A model generated the notes under the pieces. It had not been told where the DNA came from, searched no databases, and saw only the letters and a program-made list of their open reading frames with translations. Positions 19,357 to 58,911 of a DNA stretch of 64,000 nt are shown here, piece by piece (position 1 is the stretch's first letter; each line of letters starts with the position of its first letter). The position numbers and the translations under genes were made by a program. This DNA comes from Escherichia coli (GTDB taxonomy: Bacteria > Pseudomonadota > Gammaproteobacteria > Enterobacterales > Enterobacteriaceae). The stretch lies in assembly GCF_011045215.1 (NCBI RefSeq), contig NZ_CP049201.1. The stretch is one strand, 5' to 3'.

Positions 19357-19569
19357 CAGCTTTTCCTTACAGAGGGTGAATAAAAAAGCCGGTACCCACA
19401 AATGTGGATACCGGCAGGTACAAAACAGCATGGTCAGATAAAGTGGTTTTTCCCGGACATAAATGCTTCCCCTCTCTCATCCGCCAGAGAAGTATCAGTC
19501 CGTTGTGTGCAATTCCGTTCTGCATGATGAAGAGATTCAGCTGCCTTTTCGCAGGCCATTAACCACTAC

Positions 19570-21254: not shown

Positions 21255-22274
21255 TGTGTGATTCATAGACATCGTTTCAATTTTCTCAGCTCAAGTTCAA
21301 GCTTGTAATTCTGTTCCTGAATATGCTCCTTATTGGGCTGATAGCTTGCGTGAACGGCATCCGAGTATGGCGTTTTCTCAGCAAGTTCAAAGTAGCGCTC
21401 CATCGGCGTTTTACCGTTGTGAGCGCAATGAGGACGTTCCCAGTTATAGTAATGCTGCCATTCTGCCAGTCGCTCCTCCAAGTTATCAGTAGCGATATCT
21501 ACGGTAGCGTAAAACTCAGCTTTGTCTGTCTTTTGGGAGCGTTCAACTTTGCCATTAAGATGGGGTGATGCTGGTTTATTTGGACGAAACTTGATGCCGT
21601 ATTCTTTCAGTCTTTCCTGCACCTTAACGGCAAAAAACTCTCTTCCCCGGTCTGTCTGAAAGCGCTGAATCGGGAACGGCATTTCTTCAATAAAACAATC
21701 AATGAAATCCAGTGTGTTTGTAGTCGTGCGACGGGAATAGAGCCTCAGAACTCTGTAGCGAGTGCAATCATCAACAGATGTGTACTGATATAAGCCGGGG
21801 CCAATTTTACAGGTATCCATCTGAACCCAATCACCGGGAACAGGGCGTTCGTAGCGAATGAAATCAGCTTTACGCCGGAGTTTAACAACAGGTTTAACCT
21901 GATTCTGGCAAAGAACTTTGTGGATTGTTGCCATTGCAAGTGAGATTGAATGAAGTCGTTTTAACTCGCTTTGAATCCGTCTTGCACCCAGATTTCGCTG
22001 GGAACGTAACTCCAGAATCAGAGCGACTTCGCAAGTGCCGGTTTTCGTTGATGGCGAACGCTTAGGGCGACGGCTGTGGCTTTCCAGACCAGCGATGCCC
22101 TGAGCCAGATATCTGCGCCACCATTTACGCAATGTGGGGCGGGAAATACCGCAGCGACGGCATACGAACCCCGCGTCACCAGACGTTTCATAGAGTTTTA
22201 CCCACTGTAGCCGCTGCTGAATTTCCCTGTTCATAGTAAGGCATTATAGTGAAACGATGTCTATGAATCACACA
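21255..22274 (-). mobile_element. ~1.0-kb insertion sequence with 25-bp perfect terminal inverted repeats and one DDE transposase (IS481-family-like)
   Basis: Left end TGTGTGATTCATAGACATCGTTTCA (21255-21279) is the exact reverse complement of the right end (22250-22274); encloses the transposase ORF. Confidence 0.75.
21263..22234 (-). CDS. DDE transposase (323 aa), N-terminal HTH plus integrase-core domain
   Basis: Track ORF; N-terminal HTH region (CRRCGISRPTLRKWWRRY), integrase-core region with W..D-/-D-/-E spacing (WVQMDTC... TDRGREF ... ERSQKT). Confidence 0.8.
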   Translation of the reverse strand: MNREIQQRLQWVKLYETSGDAGFVCRRCGISRPTLRKWWRRYLAQGIAGLESHSRRPKRSPSTKTGTCEVALILELRSQRNLGARRIQSELKRLHSISLAMATIHKVLCQNQVKPVVKLRRKADFIRYERPVPGDWVQMDTCKIGPGLYQYTSVDDCTRYRVLRLYSRRTTTNTLDFIDCFIEEMPFPIQRFQTDRGREFFAVKVQERLKEYGIKFRPNKPASPHLNGKVERSQKTDKAEFYATVDIATDNLEERLAEWQHYYNWERPHCAHNGKTPMERYFELAEKTPYSDAVHASYQPNKEHIQEQNYKLELELRKLKRCL

Positions 22275-24797: not shown

Positions 24798-25730
24798 TCA
24801 GCTGATGATCTCAGAAAAATCCAACTTTATCTGATGAATATCCTCAAGCTGTACTGATGGAAAATAATATCCCTGAACCCCCCATAAACCAGTTCCTGAA
24901 GCAGCATGCAGATAATCCTTATTTTCAACACCCTCGGCAATAACCAGAGGGCAAAATCTTTTTATATTGTCTATTAATGCAGAAAAATGCGGTTTCATAC
25001 TGTATTTTTGAAAAAAACTTTTGTCAAGTTTCACTGCCTGGAATTTATTTCTTATCAATGTATGTATTGTACTGTTACCACTCCCTAAATCATCCAGCCA
25101 GATATGTTCTGACAAATTAATGAGAAAAGGAATTATTGCATCATCAGCCTTTATGACCGGATATGTTTCAGAAATCTCAAGAACAATAAAATCATATGAC
25201 TTTATTATATCTTGAATGTTTTTATTTCTGTATATATACTGACATGTATCATAATCGACGTTAAGAGAACACAGTATATTATGCTTGCTAAAAAAAGAAG
25301 CTTTACTTATTATTTTTCTTATCTGTAATTCCAGCAAATCAATTTTCATCTCTGCTGTAAACATATTCAGCGTTTTCACGGTAGGAAGTTGTTTTCCGTT
25401 AACAGAATAAAATCGGCTCAGAATCTCCACCGCAATCAGCCTGTTACTGTTACCTGCCGTCACGACAGGCTCTGCTATGAAGATAGTTTTCATAAACTGC
25501 CCCATATGTGAATTGTTGCTTTCTCTTATGACTGTTGCTGTCAACGAATTAAACAAAAAGTCCCTGTTCATCCCTTCATCTGCCATGCCCTCCCCCCGGA
25601 ATAAATCAGTACCAGACAGAGCGCAGCACTTCTTTACAGCACAAAACAGCAATATAATCAATTGCTTTTTATTTATTACGTGACAACCATTACAAAAAAA
25701 CAAAATATTTTTCCTTTCTTTTCCTTTCAT
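24798..25730 (-). CDS. EAL-domain protein (cyclic-di-GMP phosphodiesterase-like), AT-rich
   Basis: Track ORF; EAL-family motifs AVEILSR, DDLGSGNS, KLDKSF, AEGVE, QGYYFP; start may be the internal MADEGMNRDF. Confidence 0.65.
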   Translation of the reverse strand: MKGKERKNILFFCNGCHVINKKQLIILLFCAVKKCCALSGTDLFRGEGMADEGMNRDFLFNSLTATVIRESNNSHMGQFMKTIFIAEPVVTAGNSNRLIAVEILSRFYSVNGKQLPTVKTLNMFTAEMKIDLLELQIRKIISKASFFSKHNILCSLNVDYDTCQYIYRNKNIQDIIKSYDFIVLEISETYPVIKADDAIIPFLINLSEHIWLDDLGSGNSTIHTLIRNKFQAVKLDKSFFQKYSMKPHFSALIDNIKRFCPLVIAEGVENKDYLHAASGTGLWGVQGYYFPSVQLEDIHQIKLDFSEIIS

Positions 25731-25833
25731 CCATACTTACATAAATAAAAAACTGTAACAGCGCAAAGAATTATGACTATCATCTGCTCCTTCATACTGA
25801 AAAAAGATCATTTGATTTTCGGTTTTTAATGAT

Positions 25834-26475
25834 GTGTTAATATTAAATTATGGCGATATTCTTCTTGTTAACCCATCTTTGATGACAAGCTTTCTTACAT
25901 TTTCAGATAAATTCACTGAAGTACCTCTGAATGAAGATACAGTAAACCATTATATACACCATCGCCATACAGGGGAAAAACCAACCTACGACGGGCCTGT
26001 TCATTTTCTGAAAAAATGTTTTGCCTACCCGGAAGTGTTGTCAGAACTCATAAACAATATAAATTATGAAAATCATATCCATCCGGAATTCAGAGAAGCT
26101 GTCTGTTTCTCGTTATTGTCAATTTTTAATACCCGCCCCGCTTTAATAAACTTCCTTTCATCTGGCATCCCAACTTTTTCAGGAAAAGTACGAAACATAT
26201 TACTGTCAGATATATCACGACAATGGAAGTTGCGCGATATATCTGAATATGTATATATGAGTGAAAGTCTGATAAAGAAAAAACTTCTGTCTGAAAACAC
26301 ATGTTTCAGTAAAATTTTACTCGAAGTACGAATGTTTTCAGCCAGAAACTTACTGGAACAGAAATACTCAGTGAAACACGTTGCTGAAAAATGTGGCTAT
26401 TCCAGTACATCCTACTTTGTCTATCTTTTCAGACAACACTTTAATATAACACCACGACAATTCACCATGATATGA
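25834..26475 (+). CDS. AraC-family transcriptional regulator, AppY/EnvY-like
   Basis: Track ORF; C-terminal double HTH ...RQWKLRDISEYVYMSESLIKKKLLSENTCFSKILLEVRMFSARNLLEQKYSVKHVAEKCGYSSTSYFVYLFRQHFNITPRQF. Confidence 0.7.
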   Translation: MLILNYGDILLVNPSLMTSFLTFSDKFTEVPLNEDTVNHYIHHRHTGEKPTYDGPVHFLKKCFAYPEVLSELINNINYENHIHPEFREAVCFSLLSIFNTRPALINFLSSGIPTFSGKVRNILLSDISRQWKLRDISEYVYMSESLIKKKLLSENTCFSKILLEVRMFSARNLLEQKYSVKHVAEKCGYSSTSYFVYLFRQHFNITPRQFTMI

Positions 26476-28004: not shown

Positions 28005-29029
28005 CCCCTCTCCTGGAGTGGCGTAAAATTATTGCTCTTGTCCGTGAGGCCATCTCCAACGGCGCCCGGAAAAGTCAGACTTGTAGGTGTATCGGTATTT
28101 CTATTCGGACACTTCAGCGCTGGACTGATGGCAACGTTATTACCACGGATCGAAGATCCGATACTGTAAACAGATCTCCCCGAAATAAGCTGTCAGAAGC
28201 GGAAAGATTGCAGATACTGGAGTTGTGCAACTCTCCAGAGTTTGCATCCTTGCCTCCAAATGTAATCGTGCCAACTCTGGCAGACAGAGGGACTTATATT
28301 GCTTCTGAATCAACCTTTTATCGTGTACTGAAATCAGCCAACCAGTTGACGAAAAGATCCCGAGAATGCCAGTACAAACGGCCTGATGTACTCAGGGCTG
28401 TTGCGCCGAATCAAGTCTGGAGTTGGGACATCAGCTATTTGCCGTCCTGGGTCAGAAGCCAGCATTTTTACCTCTATATGATCGTCGATATTTACAGTCG
28501 CAAAATTATTGCTGCAGAGGTATTTGCCAGCGAGTCTGGAACACATGCAGCAGAACTACTCCAGCGTGCAGTATGGAATGAAAAATGTTCATCCAACAAT
28601 CTGGTACTCCATTCTGATAACGGTGGTCCCATGCGCAGTTATACGTTGTTGGCGAAAATGTATGCGCTTGGAGTGCTAAGTTCTTATTCCCGGCCAAGAG
28701 TCAGCAATGATAACCCTTACTCAGAATCTTTGTTCCGGACTCTCAAATATTGTCCCTGGTGGCCTGAGAACGGTTTTCGCACTATTGATGATGCCAGAGT
28801 ATGGGTAAACCGTTTTGTAAACTGGTACAACTTTGAACATAAGCACAGCGGGATCAAATACGTCACGCCAGCCGAGCGTCATCAAGGTAATGACATGAAA
28901 ATACTGGCAGCCAGAAAAGCAGTATACCAGCTGGCACGCGAACAGCACCCTGAACGTTGGGGAAAGCATCTACGTAACTGGGACTACATATCAGAAGTCT
29001 ACCTGAATCCAGAAAAAGAGGCTGCATAA
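27990..29029 (+). CDS. IS3-family transposase OrfB (DDE integrase core), expected to be expressed by -1 frameshift from orfA
   Basis: ATG-bounded track ORF 28208..29029, but the frame is open upstream to ~27990 and overlaps the orfA end near GGGAAAAG; integrase-core region with W..D-/-D-/-E spacing (WSWDISY ... HSDNGGP ... ESLFRTLK). Start coordinate approximate. Confidence 0.75.
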
Positions 29030-41299: not shown

Positions 41300-43126
<1,827 letters not shown>

Positions 43127-43798: not shown

Positions 43799-44344
43799 TT
43801 AACCCTCCTTCATTAATAAATGATTTCTGAAAATCAAAAAGGACCACACATCACAAAACATTATTTGAAATCATCATCAAAAAACTATAAATATATCACC
43901 TGACGATTTGAACACACTGACAAAAAACCAGGCATGGTAATAAACCGAACTCCCCACAAACTTCTGTTGCCTCAGATACCACAGCCACTTTCCTCAGGTA
44001 TAAATGTTGTTCCATAACGAACCAGCCCTGTATCGTTAAATCCTGCCTCAGTGACATAATGTAACTCACCAGACTGAGTCTTCGCCTACATCATCATTTC
44101 AATACGCTTAATACATTATTCATAATATCCAGAATTTCCTATAGAATATTTACTTTGCTATATCAGTCGGTCCATAATCAGGCAAATCATTAATGCTTCC
44201 TGACTGAATATTTAAAATGCGTCACATGTTATCAAAAATTTAAAGAATACCCTATTCTTCTTCATTGGCCGGATTTAGCTCAATCTTGTCAACAAAACTA
44301 ATATAAAGCCGTTCATAAAGAGAAGGATGTAGCTTCGTTATTTA

Positions 44345-44460
44345 TCTTTTACATGTAACAGTACCAGGGGATATTCCGCACATCTCTGTGGCTATCATCC
44401 CCACCACATCGCCGGTGGCAGCACCTGCGGCACCAGCAAGAACGTTATTTCCCAATGTCC
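44345..44460 (-). pseudogene. Remnant of a cdiA pretoxin-region coding segment (no start codon)
   Basis: Reverse frame encodes ...GNNVLAGAAGAATGDVVGMIATEM..., homologous to cdiA at ~46620-46700 (QGNNALAGAAGAATGEVVGMIATQM); nucleotide similarity visible by eye. Confidence 0.45.
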
Positions 44461-44467
44461 GGATTAC

Positions 44468-44728
44468 TCAGGATCCTGACGAGGGCGTTTTTCGAGCCTT
44501 GCGTTCGTCCAATTTGGTGAAGATCCACGATCTAAATGCTGCTGCAGTTCCAACAATAACACTAGCAACTAAAATATTTTCAAGATCTGATTGCTTAATA
44601 TTCACTTCATGGCTAATAACAAACTTAACTACTATCAGAGTCAAGGAGAAGAATATTAAGCAGCAGAAAATCATGTACATAATACTTAGGAGCAGTAAAC
44701 CTACAGTAGCTTTATTTTTTCGTTCCAT
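44468..44728 (-). CDS. Small membrane protein (86 aa), candidate immunity protein for the upstream toxin-like ORF
   Basis: Track ORF; two hydrophobic helices; overlaps the stop of the 200-aa ORF. Confidence 0.5.
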   Translation of the reverse strand: MERKNKATVGLLLLSIMYMIFCCLIFFSLTLIVVKFVISHEVNIKQSDLENILVASVIVGTAAAFRSWIFTKLDERKARKTPSSGS

Positions 44729-45314
44729 TTATCTCATCTTTAACTGCATTGCTGATAAATTCACCACCTATAGCACCAATAATATCACCTGAAGGCACTG
44801 AACCTGGACCTAAAACAGGGCTAAATACCGGCGGTGCAACTACTCCAACTACAGTACCGAATACCCAACCAGCTCCCGTACCAGCTAAAGCACCTTTATC
44901 TGGTCCATCAATAAATAGAGTTCCACCTGCCGCTATCCCTGCGTTCTGCCATATATTTCGACCTGGAGCCAGCGCTCCAGTAATGCCTGCCGAGGCACTT
45001 CCCCAGTAATCCCAGCTCTTGTTTTCATTGCCTGGTTTGCTCAAGTCGTACCACTGATACGTACCATTGGCAATGGCTGAGATGACTGCGCCACTGACTA
45101 CTTTACCTGTTGATGCTGCAGGTCCTAAATACCAGGCACCTGCAATCAATACGCCATCTTTATAGCCATCAACTATCACTTTACTTATATTGGCACCTTC
45201 AGGTAACTCACCTTTGGCAAGTTTATCCAGTCCTGCCTGCTTCTGTTCCGGGGTGAGATTATTGGCATCAGCATACTGATTCCATGAGGAAACCGCCTGA
45301 CCATAACTCACCAT
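44712..45314 (-). CDS. Glycine-rich toxin-like protein (200 aa), possible pore-forming/ionophore module downstream of cdiI
   Basis: Track ORF; glycine-zipper-like hydrophobic stretch GALAGTGAGWVFGTVVGVVAPPVFSPVLGPG...IIGAIGG; same composition as the CdiA C-terminal domain. Confidence 0.5.
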   Translation of the reverse strand: MVSYGQAVSSWNQYADANNLTPEQKQAGLDKLAKGELPEGANISKVIVDGYKDGVLIAGAWYLGPAASTGKVVSGAVISAIANGTYQWYDLSKPGNENKSWDYWGSASAGITGALAPGRNIWQNAGIAAGGTLFIDGPDKGALAGTGAGWVFGTVVGVVAPPVFSPVLGPGSVPSGDIIGAIGGEFISNAVKDEINGTKK

Positions 45315-45352
45315 TCCTGATGGCAGACTGAGCGCATTATTCTCAACAACAA

Positions 45353-45571
45353 CTATTTACGATAGTATCTTCGCATTTGTAGATAGAGTTGTAACCAAAT
45401 CCCAGCACCTCCCCATAAGCCAACTACTGCGCCAATTATTCCGTATTTTACATACACCTCAGAAGGTATTGGTTCCCGAGCTATAAACCAGATACTAACC
45501 ACTATTCCAATAGAGCAAGTAGCTATAGATATAAGTAACAACTTAATAAGAAGTAGTAGATGTTTTTTCAT
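45353..45571 (-). CDS. cdiI: Putative CdiI immunity protein, small inner-membrane protein (72 aa)
   Basis: Track ORF; start overlaps the cdiA stop; two predicted transmembrane helices. Confidence 0.65.
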   Translation of the reverse strand: MKKHLLLLIKLLLISIATCSIGIVVSIWFIAREPIPSEVYVKYGIIGAVVGLWGGAGIWLQLYLQMRRYYRK

Positions 45572-48500
45572 TTTTTGTCTCCATCAACTTCTTTTTGCGT
45601 TGCGCTGCTTGCACCTTCTGATACGAATGAACCAACAAATCCACCAAATGTTCCTGGTATAGAACTCATTTGGCCGCCTTGATACATACCGTATCCGATA
45701 GACTTTTCCGAATATTGCAGTGAATATTTACTGGCGTCCATTCCCAGTTGATTTTTGATGTATTGAGCTTCTAACTTATTAGTAATTGAAGCGCCAATGT
45801 TATAGCCAAGGCCTGTACCAGCCATGCTACCCACTACTGATGCGGTACTGTCCTGGCCTTCAATCTGGCTGCTCATGTAAGCGCTACCGGCACCCAACAA
45901 CTGGTTAGCGTAATATCCTTTCCCGGCTGTACCTACACCAGTCAAGCCTGACATCATGAAACTGAGATAATCGAACTTATCACCGATATTTCCCGTACCA
46001 ATTTGTACCGCACCATTAGCCCCATAGCTCAGCCCGGCACTAACAAATTTTTCCGTCAGCGTGGCTGATGACGTTAACAACGAACCCGCTCCGGCAACCG
46101 TACCCCAGTAATTTTCCGGTTCCCCGAAGAAAGCCAGAGCCCTGTCACCCTTCGACGTATTACTGTTCAGATAATTCAGGTCGTAGCTGTTGCCTTCAGC
46201 CACGTAATCCTTCACCTCCTGATTAGTCAGTGAACCATACAGCCAGCTAGGTCGGCCCGCCGCGCTGAGCCCGCCCTCAATATTCCATTTATCTTCCCCG
46301 GACAGAGCCGTCAGAGGATCTGCGGCCACATCAATGTGTAATTTCTGTCGGTTCTCTGCGCTTAATACAGCATATTTATTCTGAATATCGCCGCAGTCTC
46401 CACCCGCTTTACGACAGGCCGTCATTTCTCTGTCAAAAGCATGCGCCTCGTCGTAGCTGAGGTAGTTATTCTCAACTGTTGTCTTACCTGACTGTGCGCC
46501 GGCTACCGCTGAAGCCCCCGAGTCGCCCACCAGACCACCGGCCAGGCCGGCAGCAACCGTTGCCAGCGTGGAGACCGTCTGTTTCTCTGTCTCACTCAGT
46601 TCACTCACCGGTTTATCGTACATCTGTGTGGCTATCATTCCCACCACCTCGCCGGTGGCTGCACCTGCAGCACCGGCAAGAGCATTATTTCCCTGTGCCA
46701 GAGACAGTGCGGCATTCACCACGGCATGGGCGGCCACATTTGCAGCCTTATTCACCTCACCTGTAACCGGGTCTGTGGTCATGGTTTTCACCACTTCAGC
46801 CAGATACGGTGCTGCACCACCTGCCAGGGCTGCACTCAGATTACCGCCGGCCAGCCCCTGTACTGCTGCCGTTGCGGCCTGTATCGCCTGCTGGTATTTG
46901 CCTCCCGTTCCAAAACCGGAGGCCGCCATACCGTTATTGTAAGCCCGCTGTGCCACATCCTGTTCCGTGAACGGTTTTCCTGCTGCCTCAAGCTCTGCAC
47001 GGGCCTGATTCAGTGCTGCCGGGTCCCGTTTCGCTTTCTCACCGGCTATCTGTCCTTCCGTTCTGGCAATATCTGCCACCTGGTTACCAATCTCACCAAT
47101 GAGTTGCGCCTGCTGCAACCGCTGCTGCTCTTTTTCCCTGTCAAAGATGGGGGACAGCGTCTGGTTTGCATGCGCAACGTCACGGTTCAGGTCTGCCACA
47201 TCCTGTTTCTGGCTCTGTGTATCCCGGATAGTGATATTCCCGGCAGACACAGCCGACTGCGTGGTACTGTCCGCATGGCCTTCATGATTTGCACCGACCA
47301 GCAGATTGTTTGCCATGTTCCCCAGGAAATTTCCGGCAACACTGCCACCGGTACTGAGCCCTGCACTCTGATGTTCCGTTTTAAAGTCAGCCCGGTTTTC
47401 AGTGTCACTGAAGCCCAGTGTGCCGGTATCCAGCCTGTTTTTATCTGCCGTTGCCGTGGACGCAATCACCGCACCGTTCAGTTGTGTATGCTGTCCGGTC
47501 GTGACATCAAACCCGCCCCTGCCGGCAAAAATCCCTGTCTGCTCCTGCACACTGTCGTGGTTACTGTGCATTTTATCCCGGCTGAGGCTCACACTCGCCG
47601 AACCGCTCATGGACCCGAAAGTGAAGCTGCCTCCGGCGCTGGCATTCTGCTGTTTACTGTCATAATGGTCACTGTCCTGCTCACTGGTCAGTGTCAGATG
47701 GCGACCGGCATCCACTTTCACGGTTTCTCCACTGGCCTGCGCCCCGGTAAGTGTGGTGTCACGCCCACTGATAATGGTCAGCTGTTTTCCCGCATCCACC
47801 GTGGTTTCTGTATGGGTGGTACCGTTGCCTTTTTCACTGCCCTTACCCTGGTTTGCGCTGGCTGACAGACTGAAACCAGGCCCTCCGGGCCCCACACCGA
47901 TACCGACACCCACGCTGCCACCACTGGATGTGTTCTTTCCTTCCAGCTTTGACGTGTTTTCTGCTGATACCAGATTCACGTCACGGTTTGCCTGCAGCAG
48001 AACGTTGTTCCCGGCCTTTATCTGACCGCCCTGTATCGTCAGGTCACCATCCACGCCCTTCACGCCGGAGCCGGTGGCCTGAATACTGAGGTTATTACCT
48101 GCGGTCAGTGTACTGCCCTTCGCCACCGTCTGCTCTGACTGCTGTTCTGATTTCGAAGACTGGCTGCCGTAAGAGAGGCTGATACCCACGGTATTGTTAT
48201 TCTCTTTCTGGTTGCCCTGTGCTTCTGCCAGTCGTCCGGCCTGCACGGCCTGAGCCCCCGAGAGCGCGGCCTTCACCCCCTGCAGGGCTTCAAGCCGGCT
48301 GTTTCCGGCAGATTTCGCCGCCTGTACGGTCTCCACCGTCGTGTTCAGGGCGCTGCCCGCTGTGCCGGACAGGGCAAGCGTCAGACCGGAGGTTTTCTGC
48401 TCCACCGTATGTGTCTGCACATGCCGGTCAGTGGCGGCGGTAATGCTGACCTCCTTACCACTGAGTGCCATGTCCCTGCCGGCAATCAGGTCAGAGCCGT

Positions 48501-51500
48501 TGACGGTCAACCGGTTACCTGCCTGAAGGGAAACATCACCGTGAACACTCCCCACCGTGCTGCCTTTCTGCGTGGTGTCTGTTGCGGTGTCCGTGACCTT
48601 CAGACTCTGGCTGCCCACGCTGAATCCCACACCTCCGGAGCTCATCAGTCCGGATTTTTTCTCCTGTTTCAGGTGTGTTTCACGGTTGCTTTCTGTCAGC
48701 GTTCCGATACTCAGGTTATTTCCGGCAGCCAGGGAGACACGGTTATCCCCGGCCACACTGCTGCCCGTGACGTTCAGATTATGTCCGGCACCGATACTGA
48801 CCGTATCCCCGTTCAGTTCACTGCCCGTCATGGTCCGGCGGTCAGTGACATCATGCGTGGTAGTGGTGGTTTTCGATAACATCCCGCTGTTGCCGGTCAC
48901 TTTATGGTATTCATCCAGCGAGCGGGTATTCTGTGCACCGGTCAGCGTCACGTCATGACCCGCCATCAGGGCCAGGCCTTTCTGAGCTGACAGCAATGCC
49001 GCCTGTGACGTCATATCCCGTCCGGCGGTCAGCGTGACATCACCGTTACCGGCAAGCGTGCTGCCCGTACTCTGTGTGACGCCCTGCGACAGACGATTAT
49101 TTTTATCCCAGATAATATTGTCCTGCGCGGATGTGGTCACTGTGGAGAATGTCATATCCCTGCCGGCACTGAGTTGCGTCAGACTGTCCTTACCCTGGTT
49201 CACCACCGTTGCTGCCGTCAGGTTTATGTCCCGTCCGGCCTGCAGCACCAGTCTGCCCTGGTCATTCTGCACATATACGCCAGCCACACTGTCGATGCTG
49301 GTACGTTCAAAATGGTTCTGTCCGGCGTCACTCTGTGCCGTACGGGTGGTGGTGGTCAGACTGATATCCCGTCCGGCCATCGCCAGCAGGCTGTCCGTGG
49401 CCTGCAGCAGCCCGCCGGTACTGTTAATATCCGTCCGGGCCGTCAGGCTGACATTTGCTCCCTGAATGGTGCCGGCCTGGTTGTGAATGTTTTCTGCACT
49501 GAGCTGCACGGCCTGCTTCCCGGCCAGTTTACCGCTGTTAAACAGGTCACCATCCAGCTTCATCACCATGTCCCTGCCGGCAATCAGCGCACCGGCACTG
49601 TTCACATCACCGGGTTTTACACGGGCATACACCTGAGGTACCTGAACCGTCTGCGTGCTGCCGTCCGGCAGTGTCACCGTGGTGTTAACCAGCCAGACAA
49701 TATCACCGGTCAGTAACGCCATCTGCTCAGCAGTCAGCGCCACACCTGGTGTCAGGTTGTATTGCTTACCAAATGCAATACCCGCATCCATTAACGCCTT
49801 AAACTGCTCTTCATCATTACTGTATCCGTCCAGGTACCGTTGCCCGGTCAGAGCGACAACCTGCTCACGAATCAGACGCTGTTCGTAAAAACCATCCCCC
49901 AGGCGTTTGAGCATGTTATCCCCGTTCTGAGAAAACGCCTTCTGCATGTAATCACTGCCCAGCCACGTCTTCTGGTTCGTAAAACGCGGGTCCGTTTCAA
50001 CCAGATATGGCACATTCACTGCCGGATTTGTTTTAAACAGGCTGCTGTCCGGCAGACGGGTATCCGGCCCGGCAACATGGATACTGCCCTGAGGTGCGCT
50101 GACTTCAAACTGCTGCCCCGGCAACAGAATGACCGGTTCACCGGCTGACACCACCGGGCGAAGCGGTATCCGGTCAGTAACGGCTACTGTCGCATCCACA
50201 TTTCCGGTCAGTCCTGTCTGTACATCCGTTCCCTGTGGCTTCAGGGGAGAAAGCGTGACCTGGCTGCCCTGAACCTGTCCGTGGCTGGTGAGCTCTCCCG
50301 GCTTCAGCGTGATGGTCTGAATGACGGGGGGCGGCTCGTAAGGGGAAATTCTTTCCCCCTGCCTGTCATTTTTATTTTTTCTTTTTATCCGGTAATAATA
50401 TGTGGATGTCCCTTTATCAGTAACATGGCGCTCTCCGCTGACACTGACGTTTTCCACATCACCGGCCTGCATATCCAGCAGACCACCTGCAACCACCTGG
50501 CTCTTGTCATTAAGCAGTTTGTCTGCCACAACCGTCATGCCGGCACCGGACAGTATTTTCCCCGGGTCGGAGTCTTTTACCCGGGTTTCCTCCACGGTAC
50601 GGGTGTATTCATATTTTGTGAACCGGTCGTTGTTATGTCCGGTATCATCCGGCGTGTTCAGGTTCAGCAGTCCATCAGAGGAGTTGTTATCAATGAACAC
50701 CCCCTCATCTTTTGCATTCCAGCGGACATCTGACCCGCGATGCTGATACTCAGTCACCTTTTCCGTGGAAACCACCACGCGCTCCGTGGTGAAATGGTCA
50801 TTGACGTTATTGATTTGTCCGGCACTCAGTACCAGATATCCGGCGGCTTCAATAGTGGCACTGTGATTATTCAGTACACCGGTTTTACCTGTGGCGGTGC
50901 CATTCGCATCCAGCGTGCCACCGATATGCATATCACCTGCACTGTAAATCAGGCTGTGCGTCCGGTTATTCAGGGTCTGTACCCCCAAGTCCACACGCTC
51001 ACGCCCGGCCAGCGTCGCCGCCACGCCATTTTCTTCCAGATTATTAAATGTGGCAGCACTGACACCAACAGCATCGCCGTAGATTCGCCCGGTACCGGAA
51101 TTCGTCAGGGTGTTCGCCTGAAGATGCGTATATTTCCCGTCAATCAGCCCACGGTTCAGCAGTGTGTCCGTCACGTTAAGCCAGGTCTGCCCGGCACTGA
51201 TTTCACCTTTCCCGGTGTTTTCAAGGCGGATGCTGTTCAGGTCAAGTCGGCTGCCTGCCAGCAGGCTGCCGGTATTAGAGACATCGCCATTAACGGAAAG
51301 CGTAAGGTTTCCGTTCGCAATAGTCTGACCACTGTTACTGAACGCTGTGTTACTTTTCAGCGTTATATCGCCCGGGGAAAGCAGTTTCCCGTCACCACCG
51401 AGCTGACCGGCATCCACAGAGACTGACTGCCCGGCCTTAACCACACCGTCACGGTTCGAAAACGCCAGCTGACGGCCACTGACAGACAATGTCGCGCCGG

Positions 51501-54500
51501 AAGAGAGCACGCCATCATTATTACTGAGCGTCCTGTCTGCCATAACCGTAAGCGCCCTGTCTGCCAGAATACTGCCCTCCTGGTTATCAAGGTCCTGCGT
51601 CGTGATGTGTATTGTCTGCGCTTCCAGCCCCTGGCCGGTATTCTGCGTGTGGCGATTGATAAACTGCAGGGCGTTCAGCGTAATGGCAGAACCACTGCGA
51701 ATCAGACCAGAGACGTTGTCCACAACGCCCCGTACACTGTCGAACAGAATGTCGCCCACAGACTGTATCTGTCCGTGGCTGTTCTGCAGGCCTCCCGTAT
51801 GCAGACGGAGTTCACCTTCACTGACCAGCCGGCCACCCTCACGGTTATCCAGCGAGGTGGTGCTCAGGTCAGCTGTCGTTTTCGCCCCCACGGTCCCGCC
51901 CCGGTTATCCATTGCTCCGGTACTGACAGTCAGTTCCTGCAGGCTGTTCAGCGTACCCCCTCTGTTATCCAGCGTCCGGCCTGCGCTATTAATGCTGATG
52001 CCTTTCCCCTGAATAAGACCGGACTGATTGTTCAGCGCCAGACTGTTCCGGCCGGGCAGACCGGTCGCCACAATCTGACCATTCGCCACCACCTGACCGG
52101 ATGTATTGTTAACCACGCCTGCAGTCAGGGACAGCGCATCTCCCGACAAAAGCACACCGGCAGTGCTGTCCAGTGTGCCGGCATTCAGCGTCATCGGGCC
52201 CTGACTGATAACCCCGCCCCGGTCACCACTGTTACGGTTGCTCAGTGTGTCAGCACGGAGATTCAGTGTGGCACCGCTCTGTATCAGACCACCTGCATCA
52301 TTGCTGATATCCGTCGAGGAAAGGGTCAGTGACTGCTGTGCCACCAGTCTGCCGCCCTGATTATCAGAGCGGGTGACATCCAGCCTGCTGTTACCGTTGC
52401 TGACCACCGTCCCCTGCTGATTTTCCAGCACATTCAGGTGCGCATTCAGGTCCCCGCCGGCGGCAAGCGTCCCTTCCTGATTACTGACATCGCCACCACT
52501 CAGCAACATATCCGTCCCGGCCTTCAGTGCGCCTTTCTGGTTCATCAGCGTACCTGACGATATCTGTAATGACGCCTGACTCCCCAGCACGCCCTGACGG
52601 TTATCGAGCGTTCCGGCGTTCAGGGTCATATCCTTCTGACCCGCCATAAATCCCTGCTGGTTATTCAGCATACCGGCCCGTACTGTCAGGGTACCGGCGC
52701 TGCTGATACCACCCCGTGTTTTCGTGTTCCGGTTACTGAGAACCCCGTCCTGTACATCCAGCGTCATGTCACTGCCGGACTGAATCAGACCATCATCAGA
52801 GACCAGTTCGCTGCCTGACACAGACAGCGTTTTCTGTGAAAGCAGTCTGCCGGACGTATTATCCAGCGCACCATCCAGCGTCACGGACAGCCCGTCAGAC
52901 ACCACCGTACCCTGGTGGTTATTCAGACTCCCTGCCGAAATATCCAGCCTGCCGGCGGACTCCATTCGTCCCTCAGTATTGCTGACAGCCTGCTGTGTTT
53001 TTATCCTGCCCGTTCCGGCAGCAGCTGAAATCAGTCCGTTGTCGTTATTCAGTGCCTGTGTATTAATCAGGATGTCACGGCTGGCAATCAGACTTCCCTG
53101 CTGGTTATCCACGGCGCCGGTTGTCCTCACCTGCAGACTACCTGACTGCGCCGCCTGCACTTTCCCCCTGCGATTATCAAGGCTCAGTGCATCCAGGCGC
53201 ACCGCGCCATTTGCCGCAAGCAGCCCTTCCCGGTTATCCACGCTTCCCGGCAGACTCAGCGAAAAATCCCCTGTTCCCGTCTGAATCAGACTGCCTTTAC
53301 GATTTGACAGGCTCTGTGCCGATATCTGCAGTGTGTCGGCATTTACCGTGCCACCATTATTGCTGAACTGCCCGGCAGTCCGGGCGGAAAGCGTACCGGC
53401 ACTCAGTTGTGCATTCTGTGTGGACAGATTTCCGCTGCCTGCATCCAGCTCAGTATGTTGTCCCTGTATCCGGCTGTTGCTTAAATCCAGCCCCTGCCCC
53501 TTCAGTTGCATGTCCCCACCGGACAGAACCTGTCCGTGTGCCGCCAGTTCGCCGGTGGTACTGACAGTCAGGTTGCCCGCTGCCGCCAGACGTCCGTCAT
53601 CTTTCACCCCGGCGGCCAGCAGACTCCGCTCACCGCCGGTCAGACGCGCTGTCTGAATCCGGGTGTTGCGGCGTGATGCCACAGAGCCTGTATGGGTGAA
53701 TGCACCATCACTCTGTATCTGCGTATCCTGCCCCGCATAAACAGAACCACTGTTATGCAGCTCCCGGGTTGTCGCCAGATGCACATCCGTTTTCGCACTG
53801 ATACTGCCACTGTTTTCAATACGTCCGTCAGCCGTCAGGGTAACCGCCCCTGCCTGCGCACCAATATGACCGGCGTTACGAACCCCCACCCCCGTTTCCG
53901 TACCGACAAGGCGAATTTTTCCGGCATACATTCCACCAAGGCTGGACACATCCAGCGCCACCTGTGGCTGCGAAGAGGCATCAGCGGCTTTTTTCTCAGT
54001 CTGCCCGTGTGCAATATCCACATTGTTACGTCCGGTGGTCACTTTCAGGTCCTGCGCCCAGATACCCGCATTAATCTTCACAGACCGGGCAATGATATCG
54101 GTATAATCCGTGCGCGAGGCATCCATCCCTTTGCCCGTAATCTGAATCTCACCACGTTCAACACTGAATCCGGTCAGACTGCCGTTTTTCATCTGAGGCT
54201 GCCCCGTGGTCAGCGTGGCCCGGTTCGCATTAATAAAACCGCACCCGTCGCAACTGATGCCGGCCGGGTTCGCAATCACCACCTGCGCCTTTTTCCCGGC
54301 AACCTCAACAAAACCGTTCAACTGGCTGGGATTGCGACTGTTCACTTCATTAAGAATGATTCGGGCCTCTCCCTTCGCCAGCCACGGGTTACCGGCAACC
54401 ATGCCGCCCAGTTGGGTCTGCACATTTTTATGCGAGTTATTCAGAATGACACCCTGATGACTGACATCAAACTGACTGTAAGTATTGTGCGATACCCCAC

Positions 54501-54804
54501 CTGCAGAAGGTGTCTGGATATTGACCTGAGGAATGCCGCTGGCTGTCTGCGTAATCGTGGGCTGCTGATGCCCCGGTGCGCCATGGTCTGCGACAATGCC
54601 TGCAGCACTGACAGAATGCACCATCCCCGAGGCCAGCCACAGGGAGAATGCAAGCGATGTGACACGGCAGATACGTTGCCTGCGTGGATATCCTGTACGG
54701 GAGGAGGGTGATGCACCGGCGCGACCGGAACGGGCAATATCTGCCACCACCATCAGCATTCCCCGGGCTTTGTTAAAAATAATGCGGTAACAATTTTTGT
54801 TCAT
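45568..54804 (-). CDS. cdiA: Contact-dependent growth inhibition exoprotein CdiA (3078 aa), two-partner-secretion TpsA family
   Basis: Track ORF; extended signal peptide MNKNCYRIIFNKARGMLMVV; TPS domain (NTYSQFDV...ILNEVNSRNPSQL); long repeat region; VENN motif 298 aa before the C-terminus. Confidence 0.92.
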   Translation of the reverse strand: MNKNCYRIIFNKARGMLMVVADIARSGRAGASPSSRTGYPRRQRICRVTSLAFSLWLASGMVHSVSAAGIVADHGAPGHQQPTITQTASGIPQVNIQTPSAGGVSHNTYSQFDVSHQGVILNNSHKNVQTQLGGMVAGNPWLAKGEARIILNEVNSRNPSQLNGFVEVAGKKAQVVIANPAGISCDGCGFINANRATLTTGQPQMKNGSLTGFSVERGEIQITGKGMDASRTDYTDIIARSVKINAGIWAQDLKVTTGRNNVDIAHGQTEKKAADASSQPQVALDVSSLGGMYAGKIRLVGTETGVGVRNAGHIGAQAGAVTLTADGRIENSGSISAKTDVHLATTRELHNSGSVYAGQDTQIQSDGAFTHTGSVASRRNTRIQTARLTGGERSLLAAGVKDDGRLAAAGNLTVSTTGELAAHGQVLSGGDMQLKGQGLDLSNSRIQGQHTELDAGSGNLSTQNAQLSAGTLSARTAGQFSNNGGTVNADTLQISAQSLSNRKGSLIQTGTGDFSLSLPGSVDNREGLLAANGAVRLDALSLDNRRGKVQAAQSGSLQVRTTGAVDNQQGSLIASRDILINTQALNNDNGLISAAAGTGRIKTQQAVSNTEGRMESAGRLDISAGSLNNHQGTVVSDGLSVTLDGALDNTSGRLLSQKTLSVSGSELVSDDGLIQSGSDMTLDVQDGVLSNRNTKTRGGISSAGTLTVRAGMLNNQQGFMAGQKDMTLNAGTLDNRQGVLGSQASLQISSGTLMNQKGALKAGTDMLLSGGDVSNQEGTLAAGGDLNAHLNVLENQQGTVVSNGNSRLDVTRSDNQGGRLVAQQSLTLSSTDISNDAGGLIQSGATLNLRADTLSNRNSGDRGGVISQGPMTLNAGTLDSTAGVLLSGDALSLTAGVVNNTSGQVVANGQIVATGLPGRNSLALNNQSGLIQGKGISINSAGRTLDNRGGTLNSLQELTVSTGAMDNRGGTVGAKTTADLSTTSLDNREGGRLVSEGELRLHTGGLQNSHGQIQSVGDILFDSVRGVVDNVSGLIRSGSAITLNALQFINRHTQNTGQGLEAQTIHITTQDLDNQEGSILADRALTVMADRTLSNNDGVLSSGATLSVSGRQLAFSNRDGVVKAGQSVSVDAGQLGGDGKLLSPGDITLKSNTAFSNSGQTIANGNLTLSVNGDVSNTGSLLAGSRLDLNSIRLENTGKGEISAGQTWLNVTDTLLNRGLIDGKYTHLQANTLTNSGTGRIYGDAVGVSAATFNNLEENGVAATLAGRERVDLGVQTLNNRTHSLIYSAGDMHIGGTLDANGTATGKTGVLNNHSATIEAAGYLVLSAGQINNVNDHFTTERVVVSTEKVTEYQHRGSDVRWNAKDEGVFIDNNSSDGLLNLNTPDDTGHNNDRFTKYEYTRTVEETRVKDSDPGKILSGAGMTVVADKLLNDKSQVVAGGLLDMQAGDVENVSVSGERHVTDKGTSTYYYRIKRKNKNDRQGERISPYEPPPVIQTITLKPGELTSHGQVQGSQVTLSPLKPQGTDVQTGLTGNVDATVAVTDRIPLRPVVSAGEPVILLPGQQFEVSAPQGSIHVAGPDTRLPDSSLFKTNPAVNVPYLVETDPRFTNQKTWLGSDYMQKAFSQNGDNMLKRLGDGFYEQRLIREQVVALTGQRYLDGYSNDEEQFKALMDAGIAFGKQYNLTPGVALTAEQMALLTGDIVWLVNTTVTLPDGSTQTVQVPQVYARVKPGDVNSAGALIAGRDMVMKLDGDLFNSGKLAGKQAVQLSAENIHNQAGTIQGANVSLTARTDINSTGGLLQATDSLLAMAGRDISLTTTTRTAQSDAGQNHFERTSIDSVAGVYVQNDQGRLVLQAGRDINLTAATVVNQGKDSLTQLSAGRDMTFSTVTTSAQDNIIWDKNNRLSQGVTQSTGSTLAGNGDVTLTAGRDMTSQAALLSAQKGLALMAGHDVTLTGAQNTRSLDEYHKVTGNSGMLSKTTTTTHDVTDRRTMTGSELNGDTVSIGAGHNLNVTGSSVAGDNRVSLAAGNNLSIGTLTESNRETHLKQEKKSGLMSSGGVGFSVGSQSLKVTDTATDTTQKGSTVGSVHGDVSLQAGNRLTVNGSDLIAGRDMALSGKEVSITAATDRHVQTHTVEQKTSGLTLALSGTAGSALNTTVETVQAAKSAGNSRLEALQGVKAALSGAQAVQAGRLAEAQGNQKENNNTVGISLSYGSQSSKSEQQSEQTVAKGSTLTAGNNLSIQATGSGVKGVDGDLTIQGGQIKAGNNVLLQANRDVNLVSAENTSKLEGKNTSSGGSVGVGIGVGPGGPGFSLSASANQGKGSEKGNGTTHTETTVDAGKQLTIISGRDTTLTGAQASGETVKVDAGRHLTLTSEQDSDHYDSKQQNASAGGSFTFGSMSGSASVSLSRDKMHSNHDSVQEQTGIFAGRGGFDVTTGQHTQLNGAVIASTATADKNRLDTGTLGFSDTENRADFKTEHQSAGLSTGGSVAGNFLGNMANNLLVGANHEGHADSTTQSAVSAGNITIRDTQSQKQDVADLNRDVAHANQTLSPIFDREKEQQRLQQAQLIGEIGNQVADIARTEGQIAGEKAKRDPAALNQARAELEAAGKPFTEQDVAQRAYNNGMAASGFGTGGKYQQAIQAATAAVQGLAGGNLSAALAGGAAPYLAEVVKTMTTDPVTGEVNKAANVAAHAVVNAALSLAQGNNALAGAAGAATGEVVGMIATQMYDKPVSELSETEKQTVSTLATVAAGLAGGLVGDSGASAVAGAQSGKTTVENNYLSYDEAHAFDREMTACRKAGGDCGDIQNKYAVLSAENRQKLHIDVAADPLTALSGEDKWNIEGGLSAAGRPSWLYGSLTNQEVKDYVAEGNSYDLNYLNSNTSKGDRALAFFGEPENYWGTVAGAGSLLTSSATLTEKFVSAGLSYGANGAVQIGTGNIGDKFDYLSFMMSGLTGVGTAGKGYYANQLLGAGSAYMSSQIEGQDSTASVVGSMAGTGLGYNIGASITNKLEAQYIKNQLGMDASKYSLQYSEKSIGYGMYQGGQMSSIPGTFGGFVGSFVSEGASSATQKEVDGDKK
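45571..46476 (-). other. CdiA-CT toxin domain: VENN motif (46465-46476) plus 298-aa glycine-rich C-terminal domain
   Basis: ...GKTTVENNYLSYDEAHAFDREMTACRKAGGDCG... followed by Gly/Ala/Ser-rich hydrophobic stretches (GTVAGAGSLL, GLTGVGTAGKG, VVGSMAGTGLGYNIGA). Confidence 0.75.
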
Positions 54805-54819
54805 TCTGATAAACCTGAC

Positions 54820-55347
54820 TTATCTCTCCGGCACATCCACAGCAAGCGGGTGCTGCACACGCCACTGGCGCGCCTCTTCACGACTGACCTGTGCACCCCG
54901 GAAATTCATCACCCGCAACCCGGTCTGCTGCCCACGGTGGTACAGCGAACGCCAGCACAGACGGGGAAAAATATCCTGCCGGACAAGACGACTCATATCC
55001 GGGGTATGTCCAAAAGGGGCAATCCAGTCACAGACCCACATCCGGTCGCCGCTGTTCCAGTCCGACTGAGGCATGAGAATTGCCGGCTGCGTAAGATAAC
55101 GCGCCTCTGCCTCCGGGCTGAGCCAGGCCTGGCTCATGAAGAAAACCGGTCGCCCCTGCTCTGTTGCCACCACATACTGTCGGTGCTTAATCACCGGCAG
55201 CAGCAGGTCCGGCAGGGTATGCAGTGGCGCATCACGATGCAGGGGGGAGTGCATCCACAACCAGACGGCCGCCCCCAGAACTTCCGCCTCATTGACCGGC
55301 TCACCGGAATACAGGGGACTCAGAACGTCATATTTCCCGTTACGCAT
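54820..55347 (-). CDS. cdiC: CdiC, HlyC/CyaC-family toxin-activating lysine acyltransferase (175 aa)
   Basis: Track ORF; VWLWMHSPLHRDAPL and SGDRMWVCDWIAPFG align with the HlyC motifs SWLWASSPLHRNWPV and SGDRKWFIDWIAPFG (HlyC recalled from memory); lies between cdiB and cdiA. Confidence 0.85.
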   Translation of the reverse strand: MRNGKYDVLSPLYSGEPVNEAEVLGAAVWLWMHSPLHRDAPLHTLPDLLLPVIKHRQYVVATEQGRPVFFMSQAWLSPEAEARYLTQPAILMPQSDWNSGDRMWVCDWIAPFGHTPDMSRLVRQDIFPRLCWRSLYHRGQQTGLRVMNFRGAQVSREEARQWRVQHPLAVDVPER

Positions 55348-55356
55348 GAAATTTTC

Positions 55357-57096
55357 TCAGAAATCCCGGAACAGATTAAAACCGGCTGTCACATCACTCG
55401 TCATAAAACCCGCCGGTTTTGAAAACGGACGACCGATGAAAACGTCATAATCCGTACTGAACAGTTGCCCCCTCAGCCCCACAACACCACCGGCCAGATG
55501 ACGTCCCACCAGGTATTCACTGCCGGCTCCCCCCACCTCGCCGTAATCCATTCCCAGATATAACGCCTGCTCCGGCAGTGGCGTACGCCAGGCCAGGTCG
55601 TTGCGGATATACCAGCCGTTACTGGCATTCAGCGTTCGCTCCCCGTCAAAACCACGAACCGTCCAGCGGTTACCGATGGCAAACTGTTCCTGTGGGGTCA
55701 GCGGGGTATTGCTCAGCTGGCGCTGATACCGGAAGGAATAACTGAAGGGCTGCCCTGCAAGGGTAAAGGGCAGATTAAAGGATGCATTCAACTGCAGGAT
55801 CTTACTGAGCGCCGTTGCCTCACCGAACGTTTCTTCCGGCGCCGGCTGTGCACCAAACCAGCGGGTTCCCCGTTGCCAGCTGACACCAGCATCCAGTGTG
55901 GCCTGAGAAATATAATGACGGTGCTGCAGCCCAAGTCGCCAGGCCGCTGTCTGCCGGCGCTGCACCTGGATTTCCGTATCATTAATGTAGTTACGCGACC
56001 TGCGGGCCTGAACATCGTAGGTCAGCACCGTTTTCTGCGTCCCGTTACGGTGCAGTACCCGGCTCAGCTGCATACCCAGATTCTGACTCTCGCCACTGTA
56101 CTGGTAATCCTCAACCGCACCAGCTACCGTCTGATGGTAATCGTAATCACTGGCGGTGACGGAAAACTGCCAGTAGCCGAAAGGCACAGAGTAATGGGCC
56201 GTGTAGTTTTTACTGCCCTTACCCCCGTAATGTGGAAAATTACGGGTGGCAGAAACATACAGCAGGTCACTCAGGGAAAAAGGATTATCCAGAGAAAATG
56301 TTATACCACCGAGATAACGCCCTGTGCTGCGGGTACCTGAATCATCAAGCGAAAACCCCAGTCGCCAGTATTTGTCCTGTTTGCGGGTAATAAGAATGTC
56401 ACTTTCCCCTGGCTGCTCACCGGGTACAATTTCCATATCAGCCTGCACACCCGGCAGTCGTTGCATATTCTCCAGCCCCTGCTCAATGTCCCGTAAATCC
56501 AGCAGAGAACCTTCGTGTGCCGGGAATGAGGAATACAACTGAATATAGTCATCACTGTCCGGTGTCAGACGCACATGTCGCACAACACCGGGAATAACAA
56601 CCAGCCGGAGGATACCGCTTTTTAAATCCTGCGAAGGTGCCAGAACACGGGTGGTGACATAACCATGATCGACCAGACGGTTCTGCAATGTACTCATCAG
56701 CAGATTAATTCCTTTCGCCCCCAGGCAATGCCCGACCGCCCCGTTGGCGATTTTTTGTAAAGGCAGCCAGTGTGGTAACGCATCAGCCCCCTCCAGTTCC
56801 GTCTGTTTAATCTGAAAACAGGGCGTTTCAACAGGAAAATTAATCTTACGGGCAAAAGAGCCAGGTGCAGAAAGGCGAACATCAGGGGCTGAAGGCGTCA
56901 GTTGTTGCTCAAGGGCTTCCTGACGCTGCTGCTGAATGATAAATGCATTATCTCCGCTACGCCGGACATCCGCGGCCTGAAGAGATAAAGGCGATAATAA
57001 AACAGACATCAGTGTCAGTGACAGCAAGGACGGACAGCGCCGGAATACGCTTTGTTCCTCAGCCCTCTCGTTCCTGCAACATAATTTTCCAGTCAA
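55357..57096 (-). CDS. cdiB: CdiB, TpsB/Omp85-family outer-membrane transporter (579 aa)
   Basis: Track ORF; signal peptide at the internal start [15 protein letters not shown] (~57009); C-terminal beta-barrel ending ...AGFNLFRDF. Confidence 0.88.
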
Positions 57097-57303
57097 ACGA
57101 AAAACCTTTTATTCATGTCATACCAACAATCACCAGCCTCCTGACGATACCTCCCACCATGTTTTGCGATGGTACGCTACCGCCCTTCCGGTATTTACCC
57201 GCATCAACCGGTACCAGAATGTTGAGTAATAAATTTGTCAACTCTGAATTGGTTTAATTTTGATCATTATAGAATGAAGATCTGAAAATTCTCAATATTG
57301 CAG

Positions 57304-58251: not shown

Positions 58252-58911
58252 TCAGAGATGGTATGCCGGCACTTTGCGGGTTGTTCCCGTCAGGTTATCG
58301 TGCACCTCCACATTCGTTGTCACTACCGGCATTCCGCTCTGTCTTAATCTCAGGACATCAGCCGCAATACGCTGACTGCCAGACCAGAACAGCCCGTCCA
58401 GTGCGGTCACCAGTAAACCTGCTTCCAGCGCATACTTCAGCCGTTCACGGGACGCTTTCACTTCCCGGGCAACCTGCTGATATGGCAATGATGTGTTTTC
58501 ATTCCCAACCACGCGACGAATACGGTGAGACAGATGATACCGGAATGTATCTGGCACACCCGAAAGGCTGGCCTTCAGGCTGTACACGCAGCCAAAGCGT
58601 TTATCGTTAAACACCACATTTTTCTGGCTGATGCCCCATTCTTCACGCAGCGCGGCAATCAATTGCGGTGTCCGGGTAAGCAGCAAGCGAAAAGGCAGTT
58701 CAAAACTGGTGACGTAATCCACATTCAGCAGTGCAATACGCAGCCGTTCTTCTGGCCCGGCCTCTGTCTGCCGACACTCCTCCAGAACATCCTGCCACTG
58801 CCGGCGAAGACGGAGGGATTCGTTCCGTTCTGTAAAACAGTATTTATCCGCCAGATAGTCAACTCGTGTACGCATACTGAAAAGAATTCCGTATAAAAAT
58901 TCATCTGACAA
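58252..58911 (-). CDS. Hypothetical protein (219 aa)
   Basis: Track ORF; no motif recognised. Confidence 0.5.
   Translation of the reverse strand: MSDEFLYGILFSMRTRVDYLADKYCFTERNESLRLRRQWQDVLEECRQTEAGPEERLRIALLNVDYVTSFELPFRLLLTRTPQLIAALREEWGISQKNVVFNDKRFGCVYSLKASLSGVPDTFRYHLSHRIRRVVGNENTSLPYQQVAREVKASRERLKYALEAGLLVTALDGLFWSGSQRIAADVLRLRQSGMPVVTTNVEVHDNLTGTTRKVPAYHL

Follow-up and report, generated by a model that had tools for sequence, protein, structure and literature searches.

Organization of the cdi locus

The stretch of DNA analyzed here, 64,000 nucleotides (nt) of the Escherichia coli contig NZ_CP049201.1 (assembly GCF_011045215.1; hereafter the window), carries a cluster of contact-dependent inhibition (CDI) genes on its minus strand. 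Read along that strand, these are cdiB (55357-57096; 579 amino acids (aa) from a TTG start at 57096), cdiC (54820-55347; 175 aa), cdiA (45568-54804; 3078 aa) and cdiI (45353-45571; 72 aa). All four open reading frames (ORFs) were found at the positions given in an earlier reading of the same DNA made without database searches (hereafter the original prediction), and all are uninterrupted, together spanning 11.7 kb. An unbroken 9.2-kb cdiA reading frame with matching domains cannot, on sequence grounds, be a product of chance. With respect to the start of cdiB, the TTG at 57096 gives the longest ORF, and an ATG at 57009, the start used in RefSeq homologues, gives a product of 550 aa which is present in the databases as an exact match (QIF14436.1). 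The genes are closely packed: cdiC follows cdiB after 9 nt and is itself followed by cdiA after 15 nt, and these short gaps suggest that the three genes are arranged as in an operon. The cdiI gene overlaps the cdiA stop by 4 nt and encodes a protein with two hydrophobic segments, in agreement with the 72-aa overlapping membrane protein gene of the original prediction. Upstream of cdiB, within an AT-rich spacer, the top-scoring and correctly placed promoter candidate was a sigma-70-like sequence on the minus strand at 57266..57295 (TTGAGA-18-TATAAT, 11/12 consensus positions). The number of such sites in the region was not above the expectation from shuffled sequence.

Class IV features of CdiB, CdiC and CdiA

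The CdiB product was matched by the Pfam domains ShlB (3.4e-109), POTRA_2 (7.4e-23) and POTRA_3 (2.8e-17). As it has a ShlB barrel together with two POTRA domains, it is therefore a TpsB (TpsB/Omp85 outer-membrane) transporter. An NCBIfam scan assigned no family to CdiB, CdiC, CdiI or the orphan proteins described below, and Pfam was needed for their analysis.

CdiC was matched over the whole length of the Pfam HlyC model (PF02794; 4.6e-32, model positions 1-127 of 127) and by the solved ApxC acyltransferase structure 4WHN (3.6e-27), which bears out the earlier placement of the 175-aa protein in the HlyC/CyaC family. Absence of a catalytic histidine and aspartate had been named as a finding that would overturn this placement; His37 (within SPLHR) and Asp107 (within VCDWIAPFG) are both present. 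In CdiC-STEC4 these two residues are catalytic, as alanine substitutions at either position mimic deletion of cdiC in competition co-cultures (PMC8510554). By these comparisons CdiC is a predicted full-length toxin-activating lysine acyltransferase (TAAT) of the HlyC family, and it is identical at 174 of 175 positions to WP_001243916.1 from other E. coli class IV loci. The fold family and the His/Asp dyad are common to CdiC and to the HlyC, CyaC and ApxC activators of repeats-in-toxin (RTX) proteins. In contrast, the substrate of the latter is an RTX pore-former, while that of CdiC is the receptor-binding domain of a CDI effector, and the lipid in the published class IV system is 3-hydroxydecanoate where HlyC, CyaC and ApxC use acyl chains of C14-C16.

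CdiA, for which an exact copy exists at NCBI under a generic name (WP_250848372.1), has an extended signal peptide followed by a two-partner secretion (TPS) domain, FHA-1, a receptor-binding domain, FHA-2, a PT-VENN pre-toxin domain, and a toxin tip. The NCBIfam models TIGR01901 (1.6e-21) and TIGR01731 (1.5e-54) and the Pfam models Fil_haemagg_2 (6.6e-46) and PT-VENN (9.2e-21) were all matched. On the minus strand of the window, the TPS secretion domain (aa 106-203, TIGR01901 adhes_NPXG) is encoded at 54196..54489, the end of FHA-1 with the first part of the class IV receptor-binding region (aa 1174-1492, located by homology to CdiA-STEC4) at 50329..51285, the FHA-2 repeats (aa 1909-2450, Fil_haemagg_2) at 47455..49080, and the PT-VENN domain (aa 2733-2783) at 46456..46608. 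The protein contains a single VENN motif, at residue 2777 (46465-46476), so that the C-terminus is VENN-delimited as had been proposed. The possibility raised at that time, that the large ORF might be a TpsA protein of the haemagglutinin type unconnected with CDI, finds no support in these comparisons, given the PT-VENN domain, the polymorphic tip and the class IV homology.

Class IV systems are defined by a cdiC gene between cdiB and cdiA, by a diverged FHA-1/receptor-binding region which binds the phosphorylated heptose inner core of lipopolysaccharide (LPS), and by the CdiC-dependent 3-hydroxydecanoylation of a lysine, Lys1467 in the reference CdiA-STEC4 (Halvorsen et al. 2021, PMC8510554). 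The gene order found here, which had led to the earlier assignment to the lipidated (cdiBCAI) subtype, matches that of published class IV loci, and the match includes the receptor-binding region. For comparison we used the machine-read text of Fig S3 of PMC8510554, which contains reading errors and limits the comparison to residues up to 1492. Despite these errors, aa 1174-1492 of CdiA were 83.5% identical to CdiA-STEC4 over 321 columns. The numbering of the machine-read text fits that of the paper at R1465, K1466, K1467, G1468 and K1469. Within the Tyr-rich and basic patch, which reads YYYRIKRKNKNDRQGER in this CdiA and YYYRIRKKGKDKQGEK in STEC4, Lys1476 lies opposite Lys1467. Its codon is at 50377..50379 on the minus strand, in the segment YYYRIKRKNKND, and an ungapped alignment from the YYY motif places YYYRIRKKGK of STEC4 against YYYRIKRKNK of this CdiA. 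From this alignment we infer that Lys1476 is the acylation site.

The cdiBCAI-STEC4 locus (E. coli STEC_O31) shares with the present one its gene order, the His37/Asp107 pair of CdiC, the YYYR-basic patch, and a conserved FHA-2 and pre-toxin region. The two loci differ in the length of CdiA (2939 aa in STEC4 versus 3078 aa here), in the junction motif, where STEC4 has IENN and this CdiA has VENN, and at Cys1243 of STEC4, which is Ser here. They differ also in the tip, which in STEC4 is an AcrB-dependent Ntox25 beta-barrel ionophore, whereas the tip here has a YciB-type entry domain and a predicted helical glycine-zipper ionophore domain. The original prediction mentions neither the toxin type nor the orphan module downstream, nor that the tip departs from the one in the reference class IV system.

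Toxin tip and predicted cognate immunity protein

The tip of CdiA consists of the 302 aa after VENN, and on passing VENN the G+C content falls from approximately 0.56 to approximately 0.43. A Pfam scan of CdiA residues 1880-3078 found no toxin domain in the tip and no Ntox25 (PF15530). Two parts could be distinguished by homology. The cytoplasm-entry domain, residues 1 to ~125 of the tip (46102..46476, minus strand; the boundary is approximate), was located by a phmmer match (5.5e-14) of tip residues 10-160 to residues 5-157 of the EC869 CdiA-CT (PDB 4G6U_A), and a Cys-x6-Cys pair, CRKAGGDC, is conserved between the two. Entry of the EC869 type is YciB-dependent, and its domain is a relative of the entry domains of group 4 ionophores (Halvorsen et al. 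2024, PMC11630599). CdiA-CT-o11 (EC869/TA271, PDB 4G6U) differs in its C-terminal domain, which is a Zn-dependent DNase with a soluble immunity protein, where the tip here has a predicted ionophore.

The second part, residues ~126-302 (45571..46101, minus strand), is glycine-rich; glycine makes up 14.6% of the tip as a whole. It contains a glycine zipper of the form GxxxGxxxGxxxG (G216-x3-G220-x3-G224-x3-G228), which is the sole element common to the helical ionophore family (PMC11630599). Comparison of this half with CT-EC93 gave an hhalign E-value of 6.6e-5 with the zippers in register, and a BLASTP value of 2.6e-6; the CT-EC93 query was taken from machine-read Fig S3 text and may hold a few wrong letters. 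A first candidate for CT-EC93 on the EC93 plasmid was dropped, as it belonged to the orphan region of a second locus. An AlphaFold model of the tip, built on a 23-sequence alignment (mean predicted local distance difference test score (pLDDT) 46), was all-helical, with pLDDT values of 77-86 over residues 10-50.

With respect to immunity, the hydrophobic segments of CdiI cover residues 5-30 and 43-64, and both termini are basic. The published immunity proteins of these ionophores are very hydrophobic two-helix hairpins of 72-100 residues (PMC11630599), which CdiI matches in its size and its predicted hydrophobic hairpin. The first 22 nt of cdiI are an exact match to the published primer CH6268 for cdiI-VREC0495. 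CT-VREC0495 is a group 4 ionophore; yciB mutants are resistant to it and the cognate cdiI protects (PMC11630599). The present pair resembles CT-VREC0495/CdiI-VREC0495 in the type of entry domain, the glycine-zipper ionophore and the 72-aa hydrophobic immunity protein, while CT-VREC0495 sits, without cdiC, on a CdiA of 3337 aa that belongs to another receptor class. The tip is read as a putative type 10 helical ionophore of group 4 with YciB-dependent entry, for which the support from the CT-EC93 comparison and the zipper is weak but consistent.

Orphan modules downstream of cdiI

Beginning 5 nt past the cdiI stop is an orphan cdiA-CT of 211 aa, counted from VENNALS to its stop (44712..45347, minus strand), for which no start codon was found at VENN. 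Its end is overlapped by an orphan cdiI gene of 86 aa (44468..44728, minus strand), with its own ATG and two hydrophobic segments, so that the module as a whole (44468-45347) contains a complete toxin/immunity pair. In the orphan cdiA-CT/cdiI arrays described by Poole et al. (2011, PMC3150448), each tip begins at VENN without a body or initiation signal and has behind it a cdiI that carries a start of its own, and this is what is found at 44468-45347. Across the entry motif the orphan tip matched CT-EC93 (BLASTP 1.4e-6), and its homology to the main tip is weak (8e-6). The first 20 nt of the orphan cdiI are those of the published primer CH6247 for cdiI-88-H13-A, which belongs to group 3 (AcrB-dependent ionophore). 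As judged from these matches, the orphan module is of the group 3 (AcrB-type) ionophore type. CT-88-H13-A/CdiI-88-H13-A (group 3) has the same VENNALS start, PEG-type entry motif and glycine zipper as the orphan module, but the module of this type is here an orphan without a cdiA body. Since it has neither a cdiA body nor a start codon at VENN, its toxin part is probably not made. The orphan immunity gene is expressible and probably gives extra immunity.

Beyond it lies a remnant of a pre-toxin region (GNNVLAGAAGAATGDVVGMIATEM...), a direct repeat of cdiA on the minus strand which is cut before any VENN (44342..44461). A 77-nt stretch of it is 88% identical to 46617-46693 in cdiA and then breaks off, and by this repeat the remnant is, from its sequence, the leftover of a further module.

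In the database annotation of such regions, RefSeq gives orphan tips the names 'adhesin' or 'hypothetical protein', and full-length cdiA is named 'effector tRNA nuclease' whatever tip it carries. In E. coli C5 (5150-5404 and 6312-6549 of the segment examined) the small immunity genes beside the orphan tips are left unannotated in RefSeq.

Comparison with other genomes

Homology of this cdiA to other class IV cdiA genes ends at VENN (within the pre-toxin segment 46456..46608). Among 5,426 complete E. coli genomes, none gave a colinear alignment running from the class IV body through into this tip, and all of the single-piece matches stop at VENN. In strain C5 the backbone is 96.4% identical over 11 kb and carries an Ntox25 tip; past that tip are ~3.8 kb of other modules, and then the tip of the present locus as an orphan which starts exactly at VENN. 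In O157:H7 FRIK944 the same tip and its cdiI form the first orphan behind a different cdiA, and in CFS3292 the tip is joined to a cdiA whose FHA-2 region is ~65% identical at the DNA level. In other E. coli the tip is mostly an orphan, and here it is found on the main cdiA. Most simply read, recombination or deletion at the sequence encoding VENN loaded an orphan onto cdiA, an event whose direction we infer from a single comparison, that with strain C5. Poole et al. (2011, PMC3150448) proposed the loading of an orphan by deletion for Yersinia pestis Microtus 91001, where likewise the main cdiA carries, from the VENN-coding sequence onward, a tip which is an orphan in related strains. That case differs from the present one in species, CdiA class and toxin.

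In the class IV loci of C5 and SCU-106, cdiB and cdiA are frameshifted, while both are intact here. The supplementary tables of a 2024 survey include class IV bodies with group 3 tips, for example that with CdiI WP_001222075.1 of SCU-106; the CdiA studied here was absent from those tables when they were searched by accession and by length (3077-3079 aa).

Copies of the tip were also seen on plasmids. The copy carried by M15 plasmid A (E. coli) is truncated and adjoins an IS110-like fragment; only this truncated form is present on cdiA, and no cdiI accompanies it. The cdiA tip on plasmid A of M11 (2500-4600 of the segment examined) is 98% identical for the first ~250 residues, with the last ~53 diverged, and is followed by a truncated duplicate cut by an IS110-like fragment. 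The M11 CdiI is 35% identical to the CdiI of this locus, a divergence of immunity type within one toxin group.

Genomic island and neighbouring genes

The first 8200 nt of the window, with the core genes ftsK, trxB, cydDC and aat, share 99.3% identity with E. coli; behind these genes, at 8107-8194, lies a tRNA-Ser(GGA) gene. Sequence beyond the tRNA gene is 91-96% identical to E. coli genomes. This lower identity raised the possibility of an Escherichia other than E. coli as the host, which was rejected in view of the 99.3% identity of the core flank. The core flank and the tRNA gene together place the cluster in an island of at least 55 kb, inserted at this tRNA gene, in the E. coli chromosome.

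Just downstream of the cdi cluster are a NERD+UvrD helicase (41300-43126, minus strand; PADLOC C3a187, 2.7e-141) and an 893-aa SF1 helicase of MkoA/Hhe-type, defence-like (36349-39030, minus strand; 5.5e-44), which may form a patch of defence genes. Between them, the N-terminal region of a 405-aa protein (39657-40874, minus strand) resembles TssA (8.8e-24, short of the curated cut-off); no further genes of a type VI secretion system were seen nearby. The strain C5 counterpart of 43972-44340 is annotated as a TssE pseudogene. The same island carries an autotransporter adhesin of the Ag43/Cah family (16507-19431, minus strand; NCBIfam NF033177, 1973 bits). An 840-aa ORF (13870-16392, minus strand) was without an NCBIfam family or significant Pfam domain and gave a faint match to PADLOC PDC-M09B (9e-6). 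A cyclic-di-GMP phosphodiesterase-like protein with an EAL domain lies beside a YdeO/AraC-type regulator (24798-26475), and transposases of the IS481, IS3, IS21 (istA/istB) and IS4 families are present (21263-22234, 28208-29029, 31009-33311 and 33497-34912). Upstream of cdiB, an ECs1377-family protein is encoded at 58252-58911. The segment 57100-64000 shares ~91% identity with the closest E. coli genomes, and in related genomes its genes carry YagK/YfjJ, ProQ/FinO and inovirus Gp2-type annotations.

Discussion

We read the locus as an intact class IV cdiBCAI operon, in a genomic island adjoining tRNA-Ser(GGA) on the E. coli chromosome, with a YciB-type ionophore as its payload, and give this reading a probability of roughly 0.85. 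The gene order, the intactness of the genes, the domains, the catalytic residues, the homology to tested systems and the conservation of the lysine are established here. In the mechanism which we propose, CdiB would export CdiA, which would form a filament on the cell surface, and CdiC, with acyl-acyl carrier protein as donor, would acylate Lys1476 in the Tyr-rich and basic patch of the receptor-binding domain. The lipidated domain would then bind the LPS inner core of a neighbouring E. coli cell, and the 302 residues after VENN would pass to the target periplasm and be cleaved free. The N-terminal entry domain of the tip would use the inner-membrane protein YciB so that the glycine-zipper helical domain is placed in the cytoplasmic membrane, with loss of membrane potential as the result. 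In sibling cells, the 72-aa CdiI, as a two-helix membrane protein, would bind the ionophore domain and give protection. By analogy with published relatives, acylation, LPS binding, YciB dependence, depolarization and immunity may all be expected of this system.

Several observations weigh against this assignment, or against parts of it. Its functions are predictions from sequence. The homology of the tip to CT-EC93 is weak (hhalign probability 64%), and in the AlphaFold model pLDDT falls below 50 beyond residue 140, where a five-helix bundle is expected. The link to CT-VREC0495 (SQY39224.1, SQY39222.1) consists of 22 identical nt and homology of the entry domain. The promoter at 57266-57295 is a candidate by consensus match only. 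Frameshifts in the backbone of both C5 and SCU-106, the two E. coli genomes inspected, indicate that selection for it is not universal. Finally, the basic patch reads RIKRKNKND here versus RIRKKGKDK in STEC4, with a one-residue insertion and no Gly-Lys, so that acylation could fall on Lys1474 or Lys1478 in place of Lys1476. It is conceivable, if improbable, that the altered patch with its three spaced lysines shifts the lysine acylated by CdiC or the LPS core types which are recognized. In that case this lipidated CdiA would differ in receptor specificity from others of class IV and, coupled by orphan loading to a YciB-dependent ionophore, would form a natural chimera with an undescribed target range.

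Three other explanations bear on the function of the cluster or the identity of its toxin. The classical role of HlyC-family enzymes is to activate cytolysins directed against eukaryotic cells, and the names which RefSeq gives to these proteins are haemagglutinin, adhesin and haemolysin activation protein, so that the cluster could be seen as a two-partner-secreted haemolysin or adhesin of the ShlA/HpmA/FHA type, activated by its acyltransferase against host cells and not antibacterial. We consider this very improbable, as PT-VENN is followed by a polymorphic tip with a break in composition, a small membrane-protein gene overlaps the cdiA stop, orphan VENN modules lie downstream, and the receptor-binding region is 83.5% identical to that of an effector shown to kill E. 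coli through LPS. An assignment of the tip to group 6, whose ionophores enter via the peptide transporters DtpA/DtpB, as CT-M15 does, drew on a tblastn search in which the tip was ~91-94% identical to that of a cdiA carried by plasmid A of M15; this E. coli strain is the named exemplar of group 6. The assignment was dropped on the evidence of the published primers for M15, which specify another toxin, beginning VENNLLGGSEW (or VENNSLAHVL), and a cdiI with the start MKRLLI; neither occurs in this locus. Moreover, the M15 entry domain of that paper ends at residue 58, while that of the present tip has ~125 residues and a YciB-type match, and the CdiA listed for M15 in the appendix of the paper, 3238 aa long, is another protein. 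Membership of group 6 has, in our estimate, hardly any chance of being correct.

The remaining explanation accepts the class of the cluster and concerns its activity. Under it, the genes are intact in sequence but silent or non-functional, and are kept mainly for the immunity which cdiI and the orphan cdiI provide against neighbours. The frameshifted cdiB and cdiA of the class IV loci in C5 and SCU-106 are in keeping with such a fate, orphan immunity genes are believed to be kept for the protection they give, and O antigen shields targets in broth. Against it stand the four ORFs, unbroken over 11.7 kb, the retention of the catalytic and target residues, and the expression of the native STEC4 cluster from its own promoter. 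We regard a silent cluster as unlikely, though clearly less so than either a haemolysin or a group 6 toxin, and retain the intact class IV operon with a YciB-type ionophore as the preferred interpretation.

Each module of this locus, and the mechanism by which such modules are exchanged, has already been published; the combination is uncommon and is a reshuffle of known parts. As such the locus is a well-formed but ordinary member of a known weapon family and raises no new question. Its value is that of a complete and unbroken natural example of a lipidated class IV CDI system, whose backbone is broken by frameshifts in C5 and SCU-106. It might also serve as a construct in which CdiC-dependent LPS targeting is combined with a YciB-dependent ionophore, and in which the effect of changes near the lysine on its modification could be followed. 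With a usually orphan tip on the main effector, the locus illustrates the modular exchange of toxins at VENN.

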